Source: an uncultured Candidatus Binatia bacterium (GTDB taxonomy: Bacteria; Desulfobacterota; Binatia; UBA9968; JAJDTQ01). Taken from it: a DNA stretch of 64,000 nucleotides. The stretch spans positions 1,280,001 to 1,344,000 of the forward strand of contig OZ219754.1 of the NCBI GenBank assembly GCA_964291295.2, written 5' to 3'. The translations under genes and the position numbers were made by a program. The first letter of the stretch is position 1; each line of letters begins with the position of its first letter. Of the stretch, positions 11,211 through 20,090 are shown one piece after another. The notes under the pieces were generated by a model, which was not told where the DNA came from, ran no database searches, and saw only the letters and a program-made list of their open reading frames with translations.

Positions 11211-11961
11211 GGATGCCTCCGCAAGCTTCAGTGTGGCTGATTTTCAATTTCACCCCATTACGGGCGAGTTTGCAATACGCGCGTTGGCTGCAAAGGTGCT
11301 CAAGGTGCTGCGTTACGGTGCCGGCTGAACTGATCCGTGAACGGTGCCGCGCCGCGGCCTGAGGCGGACAGGCGCGCCGATTCCGCGGTCTGCCACCGGG
11401 TTTTCCGGCCCCACCGTCCGAAACGGCCGGAGCCGCTTCTTCCGGCTCTGCTTCGCATGGAACGGCGCGATCCGGCAGGTCGTCATCGGCCGAGCGACAG
11501 GCCGGCGACGGGATACGCCCAGCCTGGAACGAATCCGCTTTCAAGGCGATTGCCTGATTGCATGCTGCCGACCGATCATGTTGCAAGAAAACATGTTGCA
11601 AGAAAAGGCTGTTTCTCACAGTACGGTTTTCCGGTTCTCCGTCAGGTACAGGTACACGCAGGCGTGGTCACCCATCGGTGTGATCACCGGGCGTCTTGCC
11701 GCCGACATTCGCGAAGGTTGTCCGCTCCCGAGGCATCGGGCCATGAATGCCACCCGCTCTACGGGCGTGTGCAACACGCACGGCGATGGCCAAGGTCCGG
11801 GTTCGTTCCCGCCGCAATTCCGCCATGGATGGCGACGTGGTACCATGGATGGCGACGTGGTATACAGGCGAACGACGCCTTTGATCGGAGGGTCGCGCGC
11901 CGCCACCGCCTGCGGTGCCTGACCCGATTGGCCCGGACCGCCTCCACCCCACGAAATTCCG

Positions 11962-13239
11962 ATGCCCACCAACCGCCGCACGGTGTTCGCCTGGTGCCTT
12001 TACGACTTCGCCAACTCGGCCTTCACCACGCTGGTGGTCACATTCATCTATGCGGCTTTCTTCACCAGGGTCATTGCCCCGGACGAGGTGACGGGCACGT
12101 GGCTGTGGTCCCGGAGCGTCAGCGTCACGGCCATCGCCGTGGCGCTGCTGTCGCCGCTGCTGGGGGCCGTGGCCGATCGGCGCGGCTGGCGCAAGCGCTT
12201 TCTCGGGTTCTTCACGCTGGCGGCCGTGGTCGGTTCGTGTTTCCTGTACACCGCCATGCCCGGCGAGTGGGTCAAGGCGCTGCTCTGGTTCACCGCGGCC
12301 AATATCGCGTTCGAGATGGGCGGCGTGTTCTACAACGCTTTCCTGCCGGACGTGGCGCCACCGGACCGCATCGGGCGCATCTCGGGTTACGGCTGGGCGC
12401 TGGGCTACGTCGGCGGCCTCAGCGCCCTGGGGCTGGCCCTGGCGGGATTCGTGGATGCGGAGGTTCCGTGGTTCGGCTTCGAGAAGGAAGGCTACCAGCA
12501 CATCCGCGCCACCAATCTGCTGGTGGCCGGCTGGTTCGCCGTGTTCAGCCTGCCGTTGTTCCTGTGGGTGCCGGAGAGCCCGGCCGGGCCCGGCGTGCGC
12601 TCGTCGTCCAGCCCCTTCCGGCGGCTGGCGGCGACGTTCCGCGAAATCCGGCGCTACCCCGATGTCTTCCGCCTGCTGCTCGCCCGCCTCTTCTACGCGG
12701 ACGGCCTCAACACGGTCTTCGCCTTCGGCGGGATCTACGCCGCCGGCACCTTCGGCTTCACCTTCGAGGAGTTGCTGTTCTTCGGCCTGACGCTCAATGT
12801 GGCCGCCGGCCTGGGTGCCTTTGCGCTGGGCTTCGTGGACGACTGGCTCGGGGGCCGGCGCACCATCCAGATCAGCCTGATGGGATTCATCGTCGCCACC
12901 GTGACGGCGCTGCTCACCGGCCGCCGTGCGCTCTTCTGGGCCGCCGGCCTTCTCATCGGCCTGTGCGGCGGACCCAACCAGGCGGCCAGCCGCTCGCTCA
13001 TGGGCCGGTTCGTACCGGAGGGGAAGAAGAACGAATTCTACGGCCTCTTCGCCTTCTCGGGCAAGGCCACCGCCTTCCTGGGCCCCTTTCTGCTGGGTGA
13101 ATTGACCCGCTTCTTCGGCTCGCAGCGCGCCGGCATGGCGGTGGTGCTGGTCTTCTTCGTCATTGGCCTCGCGCTCATCGGGCGGGTCGACGAGGCGCGC
13201 GGGAAGCGGCCGGCAGCGGCGCCGGCGCGCCCCTCCTGA
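11962..13239 (+). CDS. MFS transporter (UMF1/Atg22-like)
   Basis: WCLYDFANSAF, about 12 hydrophobic segments, QAASRSLM. Confidence 0.88.
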   Translation: MPTNRRTVFAWCLYDFANSAFTTLVVTFIYAAFFTRVIAPDEVTGTWLWSRSVSVTAIAVALLSPLLGAVADRRGWRKRFLGFFTLAAVVGSCFLYTAMPGEWVKALLWFTAANIAFEMGGVFYNAFLPDVAPPDRIGRISGYGWALGYVGGLSALGLALAGFVDAEVPWFGFEKEGYQHIRATNLLVAGWFAVFSLPLFLWVPESPAGPGVRSSSSPFRRLAATFREIRRYPDVFRLLLARLFYADGLNTVFAFGGIYAAGTFGFTFEELLFFGLTLNVAAGLGAFALGFVDDWLGGRRTIQISLMGFIVATVTALLTGRRALFWAAGLLIGLCGGPNQAASRSLMGRFVPEGKKNEFYGLFAFSGKATAFLGPFLLGELTRFFGSQRAGMAVVLVFFVIGLALIGRVDEARGKRPAAAPARPS

Positions 13240-13882
13240 GGATCGCCAGCGCCGCCTTGACGCGGTTGTCCACGTTGAGCTTGGCGAAGATGCTGGTGAC
13301 ATGGGCCTTGACCGTGCGCTCGCTGATGAAGGTGCGGGCGGCGATCTCCCTGTTGCCGAGTCCCTCGGCCAGCAGCTCGAGGACTTCCAGTTCGCGCCGG
13401 GTCAGGCTTTTCAGCCCGTCAGCGTTCCTTGTCGCGGGCTCGGCGGGGGCCTGGGCGGCGATGGCGGCGAACTCGCCGGCGCGCGGCAGCTTGGGGTCGA
13501 TCCATATCCCGCCGGCGTGAATCGTGCGCACCGCCTGGACAAGCGTTTCGGGAGCCGCGTCCTTCAGGATGTAGCCGCGGGCGCCGGCCTTGGCCGTGTT
13601 GACGATGCTGTCCGCCTCCTCGAAAGCGGTGAGGATGGCCGTCCGGGTCCCGGGGTGGCCCTCCTTCAGTTCCAGGAGCGTCTGGACCGCATTTCTGCCG
13701 GGCATCCTGAGGTCCAGCAGCAGGACGTCGCCCCGACCCTTGGCGACGGCCGGCTCCACCTCCTCGGCCCGCGCCGCCTCCGCCGTGACCAGCAGGTTCC
13801 GTTCCCGCGCCAGGACGTGTTTCAGACCCTCCCGAAAGAGAGTGTGGTCATCCGCCAGGACGATCTTGATGGGCTCGGCCAT
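13175..13882 (-). CDS. NarL/LuxR-family response regulator (no kinase nearby)
   Basis: REC domain (ADDH, DLRMP, GYILK) plus LuxR HTH (LTRRELEV, ISERTVKAH); convergent overlap with the MFS gene. Confidence 0.93.
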   Translation of the reverse strand: MAEPIKIVLADDHTLFREGLKHVLARERNLLVTAEAARAEEVEPAVAKGRGDVLLLDLRMPGRNAVQTLLELKEGHPGTRTAILTAFEEADSIVNTAKAGARGYILKDAAPETLVQAVRTIHAGGIWIDPKLPRAGEFAAIAAQAPAEPATRNADGLKSLTRRELEVLELLAEGLGNREIAARTFISERTVKAHVTSIFAKLNVDNRVKAALAILRRGAPAPLPAASRAPRRPAR

Positions 13883-13955: not shown

Positions 13956-14927
13956 CTACAGAAAGGCGTTGCCGGCATGGTCGCAGAACGCGTCGGCGTC
14001 ACGGATGTAGCCCATGACGGTAGCAGGGCTGGTATGGCGGGTGACGGCCATGATCTTGTCGAGCCGGGCATGGTGGGCCGCCGCGCTGGTGACGAAACCC
14101 GCTCGCAACGAATGGCCGGACAGCTCTTTCGGATTCAGGCCGATGGCTGCGCCGTAGCGCTTGACCAGGCGCGGGATATCCGAGTGGTGCAGCGGCCGTT
14201 CCTGCACCGAACCGCCCCGTTTCATCGACCGGAACAGCGGCCCGCGCGTGATGCCCGACACCGACAACCAGGCTTGCACGCGGGCGATGGGCCTGACCGT
14301 TCTCCCTTCCGGGACCGCGATGCGCTGACCTTTGCCGTTCTGGTCGGTCTTGGAGCGGCGGACGACAAGCAGCATACGCTGGGGTTGGCGCCGGGTTGAC
14401 GGGAGGATCATCACATCGGCGACGCGCAGCGCACACAGTTCGGAGCGGCGCAGGGCGGCCGCGAAGCCGAGTGCCAGCACGGCCGCGTCGCGCCTGCCGA
14501 TTACCGAGTCGGGACAGCGCGCCAGCATGGCCGCCAACTCCCCCTCGCGCAGCGCCCTGACCCGCCGCGGTGCGGCGCTCGCAAGGCGGCTCAAGCCCTG
14601 GAGGGTTGCCCGAACGGTGGGGTGACGGGTGGGAGAGGGCATGCCGGCGTCGCTGAATCGCCTGGCGATGGCGCTGCTGTAGAGGAAGACCGTACCCATG
14701 GACAGCGGGACGCCGCGTCCCGAACGGGGACGCATGGCGCAGTCCAGGAGAAAGCGGGCGACGGTCTCCGGAGAGACGGAAAGCGGATCGGCGATCTTTT
14801 CCCGCGCGCAATACGTGGCGAAACGGGTCCAGCCCTTTGCGTAGGCCAGGCGCGTGTTCGGCGCGATGGCGGACGACAGGACAAGCTGGTGAATATCGGA
14901 TTGGTGAATATCGCATGTGTTCGGCAT
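13956..14927 (-). CDS. Tyrosine recombinase/integrase, Cre-like
   Basis: N-terminal core-binding region (APNTRLAYAKGWTRF); catalytic residues R (LRRSEL), K (RSKTDQ), HxxR (HSLRAG), H (TRHTS), Y (MGYIR); start codon uncertain. Confidence 0.92.
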   Translation of the reverse strand: MPNTCDIHQSDIHQLVLSSAIAPNTRLAYAKGWTRFATYCAREKIADPLSVSPETVARFLLDCAMRPRSGRGVPLSMGTVFLYSSAIARRFSDAGMPSPTRHPTVRATLQGLSRLASAAPRRVRALREGELAAMLARCPDSVIGRRDAAVLALGFAAALRRSELCALRVADVMILPSTRRQPQRMLLVVRRSKTDQNGKGQRIAVPEGRTVRPIARVQAWLSVSGITRGPLFRSMKRGGSVQERPLHHSDIPRLVKRYGAAIGLNPKELSGHSLRAGFVTSAAAHHARLDKIMAVTRHTSPATVMGYIRDADAFCDHAGNAFL

Positions 14928-14953
14928 TGCGGACCTGATACTGTGCGGGACGA

Positions 14954-14987
14954 GGTTTATCAAACCAGCGGGTTTATCAAACCGGCG
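14954..14987. repeat. Tandem pair of 13-bp quasi-palindromes GGTTTATCAAACC upstream of the recombinase
   Basis: GGTTTATCAAACC-AGCG-GGTTTATCAAACC-GGCG. Confidence 0.8.
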
Positions 14988-15230
14988 CGATTCCAGCGCA
15001 GTGCGATTGCTTGTCGATTGATCAAATATCGGGCGCGACGTTATCGGCCACGGAGTCGCGCAGGGGTCACCGCATGGGCGTGGACCGTAACAACAAGGCG
15101 GTATCAGGGGGTAGGAACTCCGGAGAACGGCCGGGTGACAGGGAGTGGCGGCAGGTGGTGGCTGGCGGGAAGGTGGCCTCTTGTGGCCTCCCGGATGCGA
15201 TTCGAGAAGGCTGCCCGGGCGGCCGGCGGC

Positions 15231-15266
15231 AAAACAGGGCCGTTCCACGAAGGAACGACCCTGTTT
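15231..15266 (-). terminator. Rho-independent terminator of porin copy A
   Basis: Minus strand AAACAGGGTCGTTCC-TTCGT-GGAACGGCCCTGTTTT. Confidence 0.75.
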
Positions 15267-15292
15267 CCGTGCGGTTCCGGCGATGGACGGCG

Positions 15293-16789
15293 CTAGAACC
15301 GGTATTCGGCGATGAGGGTGAAGACGTTGGTCTTGTCGTCGCCCTTGTCCGCAGTGGCAAGCTGCTCGTTAGGCTGCTTGTGCGGACAGCCCTCGCCGTC
15401 GCAGCTGAGTTGATCCCACACGCCGTGGATCTGCATCCAGCCGCCGGGGGCGTTGTACACCACCGCCAAGCCGCTGTTGTTCCCTTCCTGGTCTTTCAGC
15501 GCGACGTTATTTCCGTACGTACCCTTCGAATCGACATCCGTGACGGAGTACATCGGGGAGAGGTAGATGCCTCCTTCCTTCTTGCTTCCGCCCATCATGC
15601 CGCTCTTGGGACCCCACAGCCAGACCTGCGCGGCCAAGCGAATCTCCGAGGCCTCGCGGTCGTATTTCATCGCTGTGTACAAACGGTTATCCGGTTCACC
15701 CTTGTAAGTTGCCAAGTGGGCGGACAGTCCGAGCCACTTCAGAGGCGACCAAGAAACGTTATGGTACGTGTAGGTGTGATCACCCGTCACCTTGCCGCCG
15801 ACATACGCGAAGTTGATCCGCTCCTGAGTCGTCGGGCCGTAAATGTCGCCCACGCCGTGGTAGAGATCCTTCATCTGCTCGTAGGTGAAGGAGTACTTCA
15901 GGCTCGATACGTCGAAGCCGCCCATCTGCGGCGACTTCGCCATGGGCTGGATGCCGATGCCGAAGGCCATGCTGCGCCCATCCCTGGACAGGATATTCTC
16001 GCCGCCTTCCCTCTTGAGATCAGGAGCAGTCGTCTCTTTGGTTTTGTCATAGGCAGTGACCGGGGTGCGGCCGTACTCATCCTGTTGATCGAGGCCGACG
16101 GCGAATGCGATGTGGTTGATCTTGCTGATGCCCATGGCGGGAAGCTTGCCCCAGTTCAGCACCAGGCTGCCGTCCTGCGATCCGCCCATGGCCAATGCGT
16201 TGATGAACGGCGAGTCTTCTGTCCGGCCATAACCGTTGTTCTTGTTGCCGTTGAACGAAGGGTTGTAGCCGTAGGCCACCGTCGGCAGCCAAGGGTTCAT
16301 CTTCTCGAAGTGGAGATAGGCGTCGCCGTCAAAGGCCACGGAGGTATTTCCGCTGAAGGTCCACTTGACTTCGTAGAAGCCCTGGTTCGACGTCACGTTG
16401 ATGTTGGGCCGAAAACGCCGGATTCGGATCACGCCGTTCTGGTAACCCATTGCGGGGTCGTCATTGGTGAGCCATATGCTGGTGTAGATCTGGAGCCGCT
16501 GCCCGAACGTGATGCTCCAGTTGTTGTCCGCCGCGGCGATGGTCAGGCCCTTGCCCGCGGAATACTTGAACGACGGCCCCTTCATCTCGGCCGCGAGGGC
16601 GCTCTCCTGGTTCCGTCTCTCCTGGTTCTGCTTCAGCTGCACCAGTTCCCGCTCCAGGGCTGCTATTCTTCCATCCACGTCGGTTTCGTCCACGTCGGAC
16701 GCCTGCACCGGCGATGCCGCGAGCACCATGCCCGCTGTCAGGACCAAGGCACTTGCGAAACCCAGCGCCTTCTTCAACACGTCATTCAT
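15293..16789 (-). CDS. Outer-membrane beta-barrel (porin-like) protein, copy A, 498 aa
   Basis: Signal peptide ending VQA, N-terminal coiled coil, amphipathic beta-strands, C-terminal AEYRF BAM-type signal, strong RBS AAGGAGGGG. Confidence 0.8.
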   Translation of the reverse strand: MNDVLKKALGFASALVLTAGMVLAASPVQASDVDETDVDGRIAALERELVQLKQNQERRNQESALAAEMKGPSFKYSAGKGLTIAAADNNWSITFGQRLQIYTSIWLTNDDPAMGYQNGVIRIRRFRPNINVTSNQGFYEVKWTFSGNTSVAFDGDAYLHFEKMNPWLPTVAYGYNPSFNGNKNNGYGRTEDSPFINALAMGGSQDGSLVLNWGKLPAMGISKINHIAFAVGLDQQDEYGRTPVTAYDKTKETTAPDLKREGGENILSRDGRSMAFGIGIQPMAKSPQMGGFDVSSLKYSFTYEQMKDLYHGVGDIYGPTTQERINFAYVGGKVTGDHTYTYHNVSWSPLKWLGLSAHLATYKGEPDNRLYTAMKYDREASEIRLAAQVWLWGPKSGMMGGSKKEGGIYLSPMYSVTDVDSKGTYGNNVALKDQEGNNSGLAVVYNAPGGWMQIHGVWDQLSCDGEGCPHKQPNEQLATADKGDDKTNVFTLIAEYRF

Positions 16790-16872
16790 GACCCCCTCCT
16801 TGGTAATCAGAGTTAACTACAACAGCCTGCAATCTGATTGGAGTTTTGTACTTTTTTCGCGTTATCCATGCA

Positions 16873-16901
16873 ATTGTACACAGGTATGGTTTTCCGCCCA
16901 A
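16873..16901 (-). promoter_or_regulatory. Putative sigma70 promoter in the spacer, pointing at porin copy A
   Basis: Minus strand TTGGGC-17bp-TACAAT in the AT-rich half of the spacer. Confidence 0.55.
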
Positions 16902-17240
16902 CATGGGCTGTAGGTGCCCATAAAGTAGTACCCAAGTCTTGTTTCCAGGATAGTCTGGCCGCATCCGGACGGCACCGGGCAAGAGCAGCGGCAGAGAGAC
17001 CGTCCTGTACCAACTGTTTCCGGCCCTGACCGAACCGGAACCGGACCGCAAGCCCCATCGGCCCGGAAACCCGGCCCGAAGGCCGCCTGACAATGCTGGC
17101 CAGCCCGGTGGAACGATTGTCGGCCTCGGTCCGGGTGACCGCATGGGCCGCATCGCTTCCGTGCATCGTTGCACCCCCTCCAGGACCACCCGAGCAGCCC
17201 CGGAAAGTCCATGATTACTCTGATTACCAAGGAGGGGGTC

Positions 17241-18611
17241 ATGAATGACGTGTTGAAGAAGGCGCTGGGTTTCGCAAGTGCCTTGGTCCTGACAGCGGGC
17301 ATGGTGCTCGCGGCATCGCCGGTCCAGGCGTCCGACGTGGACAAAAGAATAGCAGCCCTGGAGCGGGAACTGGCGCAGTTGAAGCAGAACCAGGAGAGAC
17401 AAGATCAGGAGAACGCGCTCGCGGCCGAGATGAAGGGGCCGTCGTTCAAGTATTCCGCGGGCAAGGGCCTGACCATCGCCGCGGCGGACAACAACTGGAG
17501 CATCACGTTCGGGCAGCGGCTCCAGATCTACACCAGCATATGGCTCACCAATGACGACCCCGAAATGGGTTACCAGAACGGCGTGATCCGGATCCGGCGT
17601 TTTCGGCCCAACATCAACGTGACGTCGAACCAGGGCTTCTACGAAGTCAAGTGGACCTTCAGCGGAAATACCTCCGTGGCCTTTGACGGCGACGCCTATC
17701 TCCACTTCGAGAAGATGAACCCTTGGCTGCCGACGGTGGCCTACGGCTACAACCCTTCGTTCAATGGCAACAAGAACAACGGTTATGGCCGGACAGAGGA
17801 TTCGCCGTTCATCAACGCATTGGCCATGGGCGGCTCGCAGGACGGCAGCCTGGTGCTGAACTGGGGCAAGCTTCCCGCCATGGGCATCAGCAAGATCAAC
17901 CACATCGCATTCGCCGTCGGCCTCGATCAACAGGATGAGTACGGCCGCGGGCCGGGACACGACACCGACGGGCGCAGCATGGCCTTCGGCATCGGCATTC
18001 AGCCCATGGCGAAGTCGGACCAGATGGGCGGCTTCGACGTATCAAGCCTGAAGTACTCCTTCACCTACGAGCAGATGAAGGATCTCAACTACGGCGTGGG
18101 CGGCATTTATGGTCCGACGACGCAGGAGCGGATCACCTTCGCGAATGTCGGCGGCAAGGTGCTGGGTGATCACACCTACATGTACCATAACGTTTCGTGG
18201 TCGCCCTTGAAGTGGCTCGGAATGTCCGCCCACTTGGCGACTTATGAGGGTGATGCGGACAGCGGCATGATGGCTGACGACCGCGAGGCCTCGGAGATTC
18301 GCCTGGCGGCGCAGGTCTGGCTGTGGGGTCCCAAGAGCGGCATGATGGGCGGAAGCAAGAAGGAAGGCGGCATTTCCATCTCCCCGATGTACTCCGTCAC
18401 CGATGTCGACACGATGGGCATGAAAGACCAGGAAGGTAACAATAGCGGCTTGGCGGTGGTGTACCACGTGCCCGGCGGCTGGATGCAGATCCACGGCGTG
18501 TGGGATCAACTCAGCTGCGACGGCGTGGACTGTCCGGATGAGATTGCCACTGCGGACGCGGGCGACGACAAGACCAACGTCTTCACCCTCATCGCCGAAT
18601 ACCGGTTCTAG
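17241..18611 (+). CDS. Outer-membrane beta-barrel (porin-like) protein, copy B, 456 aa
   Basis: Same RBS, signal peptide and AEYRF end as copy A, with shorter variable loops. Confidence 0.8.
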   Translation: MNDVLKKALGFASALVLTAGMVLAASPVQASDVDKRIAALERELAQLKQNQERQDQENALAAEMKGPSFKYSAGKGLTIAAADNNWSITFGQRLQIYTSIWLTNDDPEMGYQNGVIRIRRFRPNINVTSNQGFYEVKWTFSGNTSVAFDGDAYLHFEKMNPWLPTVAYGYNPSFNGNKNNGYGRTEDSPFINALAMGGSQDGSLVLNWGKLPAMGISKINHIAFAVGLDQQDEYGRGPGHDTDGRSMAFGIGIQPMAKSDQMGGFDVSSLKYSFTYEQMKDLNYGVGGIYGPTTQERITFANVGGKVLGDHTYMYHNVSWSPLKWLGMSAHLATYEGDADSGMMADDREASEIRLAAQVWLWGPKSGMMGGSKKEGGISISPMYSVTDVDTMGMKDQEGNNSGLAVVYHVPGGWMQIHGVWDQLSCDGVDCPDEIATADAGDDKTNVFTLIAEYRF

Positions 18612-18637
18612 CGCCGTCCATCGTCGGAACCGCACGG

Positions 18638-18681
18638 AAAGAGGGGCGTTCCTTCATGGAACGGCCCTCTTTTTTTATTTT
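18638..18681 (+). terminator. Rho-independent terminator of porin copy B
   Basis: AAAGAGGGGCGTTCC-TTCAT-GGAACGGCCCTC followed by a T run. Confidence 0.8.
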
Positions 18682-18849: not shown

Positions 18850-19509
18850 ATGGTGCGAGCCGGACGAACGATACGCGGACTTTTCGGTGGGGTTGTCGTC
18901 TGCACCCTTCTGATGGCAGGTCTTTCGGGCTGTTGGCGGCCCTCGGGCATCGGGGTGGGGGGCAAGTACAACGACGCGCTGAACGAGATGGGCAAGACCC
19001 TGCGTGGCGGGCAGGCCAGGAAGGCCATTGTCGACTTGCAGTATGTGGTCAGCAGGAACCCCCGGTACAAGGACAGCCTGACACAGCTCGGGCGCGCCTA
19101 CTATTACGCGGGCCGGTACGGTGACGCTTTCGACGTAGTGAAGCGGGGCTTGGCGCTGAACAGGGACGACGAGATCGGGTGGCTGGTTCTCGGGCTCACT
19201 CAGATGCAGCGCGGCGACGATGAGGGCGGACTTGCGAGCTTCAAGGGCGGCCTGACCCTGCTGGCCAAGGCCACGCGGGAAGGCTACAGGGACATACCGG
19301 ACGAGTTCTGGGACACCCGGGGGGTGGTACGCAGAGCCTTGCGCCGGAGCATCTCGCTGGCGCGCAAGGGTGTCGGCGAAAAACGCCGAATCATTCAGGC
19401 GGGTGAACTATTGCTCCACCGCGTCGACCGCGAACTCTATGACGCCGAACAGCTTCAGAGCCACAGCGAGTATCTGGACAGCCGGCGCGACCGGGAAAAG
19501 GACAATTAG
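18850..19509 (+). CDS. TPR-containing lipoprotein
   Basis: RBS GGAGG, lipobox LSGC, TPR-like helices (LGRAYYYAGRYGDA). Confidence 0.75.
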   Translation: MVRAGRTIRGLFGGVVVCTLLMAGLSGCWRPSGIGVGGKYNDALNEMGKTLRGGQARKAIVDLQYVVSRNPRYKDSLTQLGRAYYYAGRYGDAFDVVKRGLALNRDDEIGWLVLGLTQMQRGDDEGGLASFKGGLTLLAKATREGYRDIPDEFWDTRGVVRRALRRSISLARKGVGEKRRIIQAGELLLHRVDRELYDAEQLQSHSEYLDSRRDREKDN

Positions 19510-19955
19510 TTCCTGATCCCGGGCCCGCTCCGTTCGACGAGGAGATGGAGGGCCGCGCCCTGTTCGCGCAGCAGGGCGCTCTGTTCGCGCAGAGCGGCGC
19601 CTTGCTCACGAAGCGCCTCGCCTTGCTCACGAAGCGCCTCGCCTTGCCGTTCCAATGCCAGAAGGTTGGCATTCAGCACTTTCATGGTCTCCTCATGGTT
19701 GGCCATGTATTGCTCATGGTTGGCCATGAATTCCGCGTGGCGGCGTTCTTGGGCGGCGACGACTTCGGCGTTCTGCATGTCCCTGCGCTGCATTCCCCGG
19801 TGCATGATCCATAGACCGGAGCCGATGAGCAGACACTGAGCGGTGCCGACACCGGCACTGATCCACAGCCCGGCATACTGATAGGACAGCGCCGTGGCCT
19901 GATAGGCCAGTACCGCGGACTGGTAAGCCAGCGTTGCGGTCTCGAATTCCGTCAT
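19506..19955 (-). CDS. Membrane-anchored heptad-repeat coiled-coil protein
   Basis: TM helix, RRHAEFM motif, 21-bp repeats encoding LREQGEA/LREQGAA; start codon uncertain. Confidence 0.6.
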   Translation of the reverse strand: MTEFETATLAYQSAVLAYQATALSYQYAGLWISAGVGTAQCLLIGSGLWIMHRGMQRRDMQNAEVVAAQERRHAEFMANHEQYMANHEETMKVLNANLLALERQGEALREQGEALREQGAALREQSALLREQGAALHLLVERSGPGIRN

Positions 19956-20090
19956 GATGCGAGCCTTCGCCCTGGTCCCACAACCCGTGCTCCGCCAAGA
20001 TACACTATCGTACATATCGGCAAAAAGCGGAGGCCCTTTAGGTGCCGGAGAAAAATACTAGTTGCCGGGAGGGCCGATTGCAAGATTCGA

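Follow-up and report, generated by a model that had tools for sequence, protein, structure and literature searches.

A putative invertible promoter segment between two divergent porin genes beside a tyrosine recombinase in an uncultured Candidatus Binatia bacterium

In the genome of an uncultured Candidatus Binatia bacterium, a stretch of 64,000 nucleotides (nt) (assembly GCA_964291295.2, contig OZ219754.1, positions 1,280,001 to 1,344,000 of the forward strand; hereafter the window, to which positions refer unless a locus of another genome is named) contains two closely similar porin-like genes, A and B, which lie head to head around a short unique spacer and beside a tyrosine recombinase gene. 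Does this locus encode a switch, in which inversion of the spacer decides which of the two porins is made? An earlier note on this DNA had proposed such a switch from the letters alone. Comparison with related genomes leads us to consider, with a probability of about 65%, that an invertible promoter toggles two porin variants, that the adjacent recombinase acts at or near a 19-nt motif at the inner end of each repeat arm, and that general recombination adds gene conversion and chimeras.

The inverted porin pair and the orientation of its spacer

Porin copy A (15293-16789, minus strand, 498 amino acids) and porin copy B (17241-18611, plus strand, 456 amino acids counted from the ATG behind the ribosome-binding site (RBS)) share 84% amino-acid identity, with gaps confined to a few blocks, and are exactly the two porin copies found in their own genome (3.7 Mb, 3 contigs). 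They form an inverted repeat of six collinear blocks (I1-I6), 91-98% complementary, with arms of about 1.5 kb at 15231-16813 (left arm, blocks I1-I6) and 17217-18673 (right arm). On the outer side the homology reaches 62 nt beyond each porin stop, past a hairpin and T tract, and on the inner side it begins 24 nt 5' of each ATG, RBS included; the unique spacer between the innermost arms (16814-17216, 403 bp) is the proposed invertible segment. The terminator-like hairpin 3' of porin B (18647-18663, plus strand) was called by the terminator scan; its mirror 3' of porin A (15231-15266, minus strand, with a short T tract, within repeat block I5) was not, and was identified by reading the sequence. 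The layout claimed by the earlier note, namely a head-to-head paralog pair forming a ~1.5 kb inverted repeat, homology that starts 24 bp upstream of the ATG and runs through both terminators, and a unique spacer of ~400 bp, was borne out in each of these points.

The most direct evidence for inversion comes from the spacers of nine genomes that carry this pair, which were compared after all loci had been oriented by their flanks. An AT-richer block of ~105 nt adjoins copy A in the window and lies in the same sense in G005 and G010, and it lies in the opposite sense, adjoining copy B, in G002, G006, G008, G019 and G020; in the spacer of G042 the promoter-like block also faces B. With fixed flanks, the block is therefore directed to A in three genomes (window included) and to B in six, as would be expected from the spacer flipping proposed in the earlier note. 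Aligned in inverted sense over 297 nt, the complete spacers of G002 and G005 share 77% identity; these two genomes are sisters with opposite states, and the flank tree needs at least two inversions to account for the spacer states.

Sequences upstream of single-copy porins are homologous to this block and share with it the motif CAATTGC..(N)..AAAAA(A/C)GTA(G/C)AAA, which every one of the nine spacers contains exactly once, at a distance of 84-98 nt from the ATG that the motif faces. In the window, the promoter-like block aimed at copy A (16845-16876, minus strand) includes TTGCAT, 17 nt and TACAAA (16873-16845, minus strand), which we infer to be -35 and -10 elements, and no such block is present on the side of porin B in this assembly. 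The spacer side that lacks the block has a conserved stretch of ~14-50 nt beside the arm. As in an inverton, inverted repeats surround a segment with one conserved promoter-like block, the promoter being putative, and both orientations exist, among species. A single promoter, rather than one for each copy, had been a premise of the switch, and one promoter-like block per spacer, not two, is in agreement with it.

The two copies could not be assigned to a known sequence family. Neither porin A nor porin B matched Pfam at E-values up to 0.01 or any family in NCBIfam, and the Porin_O_P profile (PF07396), as well as other barrel-family Pfam profiles, matched none of 26 members of the porin family at E-values up to 1. 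An AlphaFold2 model built from 26 family sequences, of moderate confidence (predicted local distance difference test (pLDDT) 68.7, predicted template modelling score (pTM) 0.69), has a signal peptide, a long helix at amino acids 36-69, corresponding to a coiled coil, and a beta-barrel. The best PDB matches of this model in Foldseek were OprP (2o4v, E 1e-15) and OprO (4rjw and 4rjx), followed by general porins; for OprP and OprO the E-values ranged from 1e-15 to 8e-15 and the TM scores from 0.56 to 0.67, values to be read with the pLDDT of 68.7. The nearest neighbours in the ESM Atlas were Binatota hypothetical proteins, and then Porin_O_P clusters. By predicted fold, porins A and B are OprO/OprP-like, without being members of a Pfam family: they resemble the phosphate-selective porins OprP and OprO in their best structural matches and Porin_O_P Atlas neighbours, while they differ from them in the lack of any Pfam match (0/26) and in the extra N-terminal coiled coil.

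What would a switch between such similar proteins change? The differences between A and B in eight pairs were placed on the AlphaFold2 model. In the segments L4-L8 (amino acids 235-270, 312-333, 367-377, 422-433 and 465-485) 32-64% of the compared cells differed; the strands of the same half differed in 2.5-28% of cells and its short turns in 2.5-10%. In porins, the chain termini and the short turns lie on the periplasmic side. Counting strands from the C-terminal one, we therefore predict L4-L8 to be extracellular loops. Since the A/B divergence is concentrated in these loops, a switch would alter the exposed face of the porin. As a separate observation, the recombinase-proximal porin copy of G042 carries an Ala/Lys-rich insertion of ~250 nt at the junction of coiled coil and barrel (L041 7813-8063).

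The recombinase, its distribution and the evolution of the arms

The recombinase belongs to the tyrosine recombinase superfamily, with a PF00589 score of 50.8 bits against a cut-off of 27.1, and its residues R160, K193, H272, R275, H298 and Y307 align to the active-site columns of Cre. These six residues are invariant in 14/14 relatives, and the tyrosine recombinase with a full R-K-HxxR-H-Y set that had been noticed beside copy A was thereby confirmed. The open reading frame at 13956-15248 (minus strand) is over-extended, since no ortholog aligns before residue ~108-116. Translation likely begins at the ATG at 14927, which gives a protein of 323 amino acids (13956-14927, minus strand) and places the start 366 nt from the stop of copy A. 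The segment upstream of 14927 (to 15248) is probably not translated, judging from this alignment. Among solved structures the best relative is Cre, over residues 94-313 only (E 1e-5, 27-28 bits), and XerC, XerD and XerA scored in the same weak range. Similarity to Cre over its full length, including the N-terminal DNA-binding domain, was not found, and the label "Cre-like" given earlier thus holds only loosely, for the catalytic domain, with Cre as best PDB match, and does not extend to the N-terminal domain, which remained unaligned.

The recombinase is linked to the inverted pair within the genus, which comprises 28 genomes; the recombinase was searched in all 28 and the porin in 24 congeners, and 18 porin loci of other genomes (one cut at a contig end) as well as five other sites of recombinase relatives were fetched. 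Nine genomes (G000, G002, G005, G006, G008, G010, G019, G020 and G042) have one gene order, in which genes for an MFS protein, a LuxR-type regulator (minus strand), the recombinase (minus strand), porin A (minus strand), the spacer, porin B (plus strand), a TPR protein (plus strand), a nucleotidyltransferase and a kinase follow one another. The recombinase orthologs are 78-82% identical and occupy the same place in nine other genomes, with a divergence similar to that of the neighbouring genes; in one of these, G018, the contig stops 472 nt beyond the recombinase, which again adjoins LuxR. At the locus itself, the recombinase is present in 9/9 inverted pairs and in 0/7 of the fetched loci with single or tandem porins, which answers in the affirmative the earlier question of whether recombinase and pair co-occur in related genomes. 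Six of these seven loci have a single porin (G003, G011, G012, G014, G017 and G022), and in G024 (L029 7478-13737), likewise without recombinase, a tandem duplication of porin and TPR genes takes the place of the inverted pair. All seven show the order LuxR (minus strand), porin (plus strand) and TPR (plus strand) with no recombinase at that place, and five further genomes have one porin gene and no recombinase that could be found. The LuxR-type regulator is present at 19/19 of the porin loci, the window and the contig-end locus L042 included. In a tree of four flanking proteins from 18 genomes, from which G018 and the unfetched genomes were left out, the pair genomes form essentially one clade, with the single-copy G017 nested inside at weak support. 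The flanking MFS, LuxR, TPR and APH proteins of these relatives are 71-89% identical to those of the window.

A different arrangement was found in G009 (L031 6577-13470) and G023 (L030 6618-14161), where a full-length porin next to LuxR is accompanied by a convergent 5'-truncated copy without signal peptide and coiled coil, 4-5 kb away, with repeats of ~395 nt at 89% and ~725-765 nt at 85% identity. The recombinase lies directly beside this silent porin cassette in G009 and elsewhere in G023.

At the inner boundary of the repeat, ACTCTGATTACCAAGGAGG is the only invariant run of at least 12 nt across the 18 gene copies, at position -23 to -5. In the window it includes the RBS and lies at the inner end of the left arm (16795-16813, minus strand) and of the right arm (17217-17235, plus strand), and it is the candidate crossover or recognition region. 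In the nine pair genomes this motif occurs once per strand as an inverted pair and nowhere else, and it is absent, with up to one mismatch allowed, from 18 other genomes of the genus; single-copy relatives carry AATCTCGTTACCAAGGAGG at its position. In G021, where there is one porin gene and the recombinase is absent, the motif is present once, with one mismatch.

Beyond this boundary, the porin copies undergo concerted evolution, as judged from their sequences. A and B from the same genome resemble each other far more closely (e.g., 97-100%) than positional orthologs of sister species do (~80%), and in trees of both gene halves they mostly cluster by genome. A comparison of six sequences from G005, G002 and G010 resolved no crossover point, owing to this homogenisation of A and B. 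In G008, identity between the copies has dropped to ~55-65% outside a stretch of ~200-250 nt that starts at the boundary and includes a perfect run of 191 nt; at least in this 5' portion, exchange is therefore maintained. The two copies of this genome (L027 3263-6340) are ~61% identical overall; copy A groups with the porins of G017 and G000 and copy B with those of G006 and G042, a grouping which suggests that alleles were exchanged between species or that the allelic lineages are old.

Close relatives of the recombinase were also found away from porins. In G010 (L039 9772-15470), a paralog with 64% identity adjoins a methylase of 1295 amino acids with Eco57I, N6_Mtase and TaqI_C domains, and this locus, which holds an inverted silent TaqI_C cassette with a 171-nt repeat at 91%, looks like a specificity-domain shufflon. 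In G011 (L037 7842-10425), an ortholog with 77% identity adjoins two TaqI_C cassettes in inverted orientation that share a perfect 112-nt repeat; transposase-like open reading frames are adjacent, no full-length methylase lies nearby, and the locus may be a decayed shufflon. With the porin locus included, close relatives of the enzyme thus occupy inverted-cassette loci of three kinds. A wider scan returned 11 loci on genome contigs (six congeners, the others 28-37% identical) and 80 loci on metagenome contigs (best 51% identical).

The locus is also present in four public runs of one study, available as Logan contigs; no RNA run was among those found to contain it. In run X1 the spacer was recovered as one contig with a depth of 122, against 125-127 for the flanks. 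In run X2 (window 15806-17246) the spacer contig has a depth of 224 against 64-67 for the flanks, and a contig at about twice the flank depth carries a short B-type L4 loop (21 nt for 87) at the position of copy A; this oddity may reflect strain-level conversion or a mixture. Porin-like fragments occur near the pair as well: an 81-nt piece resembling residues 286-312 of porin B (70% identity) lies at 11677-11757 (minus strand), intergenic and upstream of the MFS gene, 3.5 kb away from copy A, and is probably debris of an earlier rearrangement, and two short fragments lie in the interval between recombinase and porin A of G005 (L023 7710-7912). Contig joints on opposite strands (14900/18098) were considered as a sign of inversion and ruled out, as they are explained by the 81-nt fragment, which also accounts for the loose contig ends at 18176.

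The proposed switch and its rivals

In the switch that we propose, the 403-bp segment would carry the sole porin promoter and would be flanked by the divergent porin genes, which form identical inverted repeats in their 5' untranslated regions (UTRs) and 5' coding parts. Recombination in the arms would flip the segment, the promoter then driving A or B, and in this assembly it would face copy A. A flip would change the exposed face of an abundant OprO/OprP-like porin and leave the strands and periplasmic turns in common, and if expression is mutually exclusive, as the arrangement suggests, a cell would probably display one of two surface variants at a time; recognition by phages or a host might be the selective agent. 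Inversion would most likely be catalysed by the adjacent tyrosine recombinase at or near the 19-nt motif of each arm, while the long arms probably also undergo RecA-type exchange and gene conversion, from which chimeras would arise and by which the copies would stay alike. Since copy A is followed on its own strand by the recombinase gene, the state of the switch might feed back on the expression of the latter.

Several results weigh against this proposal. A scan with the consensus sigma-70 signal called no promoter in the spacer, and the promoter is thus assigned by conservation only; the pair genomes are one clade, so that the co-occurrence with the recombinase amounts to one gain and its retention, not nine independent events; the near match in G021, without a recombinase, means that the 19-nt motif may be partly an inherited 5' UTR. 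The contigs of the public runs end at the repeat (spacer contig 16784-17246), and the orientation evidence accordingly stays between species. Arms of at least 600 nt at 97-100% identity can invert by general recombination, and the enzyme is hence not strictly needed. When the cassette repeats of G011 and G010 were searched by blastn-short in the 5' arms of every porin copy, chance 7-9-mers were the only matches, and no motif was common to both. Finally, among the distant relatives of the recombinase (35-51% identity) an inverted repeat of at least 40 nt was present at 2/51 loci of at least 4 kb, and a porin or TaqI_C/methylase match at 0/51 (metagenome contigs of at least 4 kb); as distant relatives are rarely near inverted repeats, the invertase context applies to the close relatives only.

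The last three of these results would suit a mechanism of the type found at the sap locus of Campylobacter fetus, where S-layer genes are switched by inversion of a segment of several kb, mainly in a RecA-dependent manner and, to our knowledge, with no dedicated adjacent recombinase. Here too, the spacer would flip and toggle the porins through RecA-dependent exchange between the arms, and the recombinase would have another role, e.g., as a relic of an element that brought the second porin copy. The long and nearly identical arms, the concerted evolution, which speaks for general recombination and conversion along the whole gene, and the porin debris at 11677-11757 and L023 7710-7912, which points to a history of rearrangement, favour this explanation. 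We nevertheless regard it as unlikely, because the recombinase is intact, has an active site invariant in 14/14 relatives and is kept at every pair locus; the very presence of an adjacent recombinase argues against simple membership in the sap type. In addition, recombinase and second copy were lost together in G017 (whose nested position is weakly supported), the closest relatives of the enzyme sit at other inverted-cassette loci, and an invariant 19-nt motif lies exactly at the arm boundary.

It is quite improbable, in our view, that A and B are static divergent paralogs, each with its own signals, and that the spacer orientations are rare evolutionary accidents of no regulatory significance. 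The orientation contrast does lie between species, and the conserved ~14-50 nt on the other side of the spacer could be a second, unrecognised promoter; against this, just a single block shows homology to the promoter region of single-copy porins, at least two flips fall among nine species, one of them between sisters, and the architecture has been kept together with the recombinase though the flanking proteins diverged by 11-29%. An artefact, by which two strain alleles of one porin gene were joined head to head during assembly, had been named in the earlier note as an outcome that would undo the switch. The genome does come from uncultured material, and the allele-like differences and odd depths of run X2 would fit such an error, which is nonetheless scarcely credible, as eight other assemblies, among them several single-contig chromosomes, contain the same head-to-head pair with its flanks, and the spacer contig of run X1 was recovered at flank-level depth.

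A further proposal concerns the origin of the switch. The recombinase together with an inverted alternate cassette may be a portable switching module that moved within the genus between an Eco57I/TaqI_C specificity shufflon and the major porin locus, where it was installed as a divergent pair with an invertible promoter and as a convergent 5'-truncated silent cassette (G009). We put this forward as a tentative idea that we ourselves rate as rather doubtful; if it were true, one recombinase lineage would diversify both a phage receptor and restriction specificity in an uncultured Binatia lineage.

Known inversion systems and neighbouring features

Most documented cases of phase and antigenic variation by DNA inversion come from pathogens and gut commensals, the usual targets being pili, flagella, capsules, S-layers, lipoproteins, SusC/D transporters and restriction specificity. 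Binatota have been reported from marine sponge microbiomes. The sapA genes of C. fetus and slpA/slpB of Lactobacillus acidophilus are opposed homologs with conserved 5' ends around a promoter-bearing invertible segment; the porin pair resembles them in its oppositely oriented homologs around a presumed invertible promoter and differs in its products, which are S-layer proteins there.

Closer parallels are the surface-lipoprotein systems vpma of Mycoplasma agalactiae, vsp of M. bovis and vsa of M. pulmonis, which, according to PMC2268961, are inverted by Xer1, Mbr and HvsR. In vpma the recombination sites lie in identical 5' UTRs (-1 to -72), and HvsR of M. pulmonis also acts on an hsd restriction-specificity locus (PMC2268961). 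As described there, these systems share with the porin locus a unique promoter (here putative), identical 5' UTRs, an adjacent tyrosine recombinase and an inversion (here proposed) that swaps the gene behind the promoter; with respect to the vpma/vsp-type site, an identical 5' UTR with an invariant 19-mer is present here, and the copies evolve in concert. HvsR provides a further likeness, in that the recombinase lineage studied here occurs at porin and specificity-cassette loci. The mycoplasma systems concern, in the same description, lipoproteins of wall-less Mollicutes in multi-gene arrays with short sites and a proven dependence on the recombinase, whereas here the targets are two beta-barrel porins of a diderm, unrelated in sequence to those lipoproteins, the arms are gene-long, and we infer the dependence on the recombinase.

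Variation of outer-membrane proteins by inversion has also been reported. In Bacteroides fragilis, which also has promoter invertons, SusC/SusD outer-membrane shufflons are inverted by the tyrosine recombinase Tsr0667 (PMC4747536), and an enrichment of TonB-linked outer-membrane proteins among the targets of programmed inversion is reported in PMC9881135. The likeness to these accounts lies in outer-membrane beta-barrel proteins that are, or here would be, varied by tyrosine-recombinase inversion; the Bacteroides systems involve 22-strand TonB-dependent transporters with SusD partners and a master invertase that acts at many distant loci, as opposed to a 16-strand-type porin pair and a 19-mer at this locus only. 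For Omp1 of Dichelobacter nodosus, site-specific inversion among four linked omp1 genes was proposed (PMC4196234, in a passage citing Moses et al. 1995). Omp1, as that passage presents it, is likewise a major outer-membrane protein with variant genes for which inversion was proposed, and it differs in its four genes and multiple inversions. PglX and Eco57I-domain proteins are among the top programmed-inversion targets according to PMC9881135, and the recombinase relatives beside inverted TaqI_C cassettes in G010 and G011 resemble this type; such inversion alters a coding 3' specificity domain, while the locus in the window would move a promoter between two full genes.

The earlier note knew of no such architecture for a porin pair, and our literature search likewise found neither a classical porin pair with an invertible promoter nor any such system in Binatota; the word "porin" occurs 0 times in the main text of PMC9881135, the supplements of which may list further target families. 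The claim of novelty holds for the porin-pair architecture and has to be narrowed otherwise: since inversion of Omp1 and SusC/SusD is already in print, the principle is less new than first thought, being known from Mycoplasma, Bacteroides and Dichelobacter, and what is new is its presumed target, a classical porin of an uncultured Binatia. If the proposed switch is true, inversion switching would extend to a classical barrel of the general-porin type and to the uncultured phylum Binatota. The comparative evidence, that is, retention, both orientations and loop-focused divergence, was gained without cultures and makes a concrete, testable case of receptor variation. The system is compact, with ~1 kb for arms and spacer together plus one enzyme, and therefore suits a heterologous inversion assay. 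One recombinase lineage would serve both a surface protein and restriction-specificity cassettes, paralleling HvsR in M. pulmonis.

Among the neighbouring features, the NarL/LuxR-type response regulator (13175-13882, minus strand; Pfam Response_reg and GerE) is a possible porin regulator and lies outside the switch itself. Rfam gave no match in the window between 13000 and 20000 at E-values up to 0.1. At 19506-20015 (minus strand), a protein of 169 amino acids with no family match in Pfam or NCBIfam has a membrane segment and heptad-like repeats coded by 21-nt tandem units (D9, D10), and four to five paralogs of it are clustered at the G023 locus.

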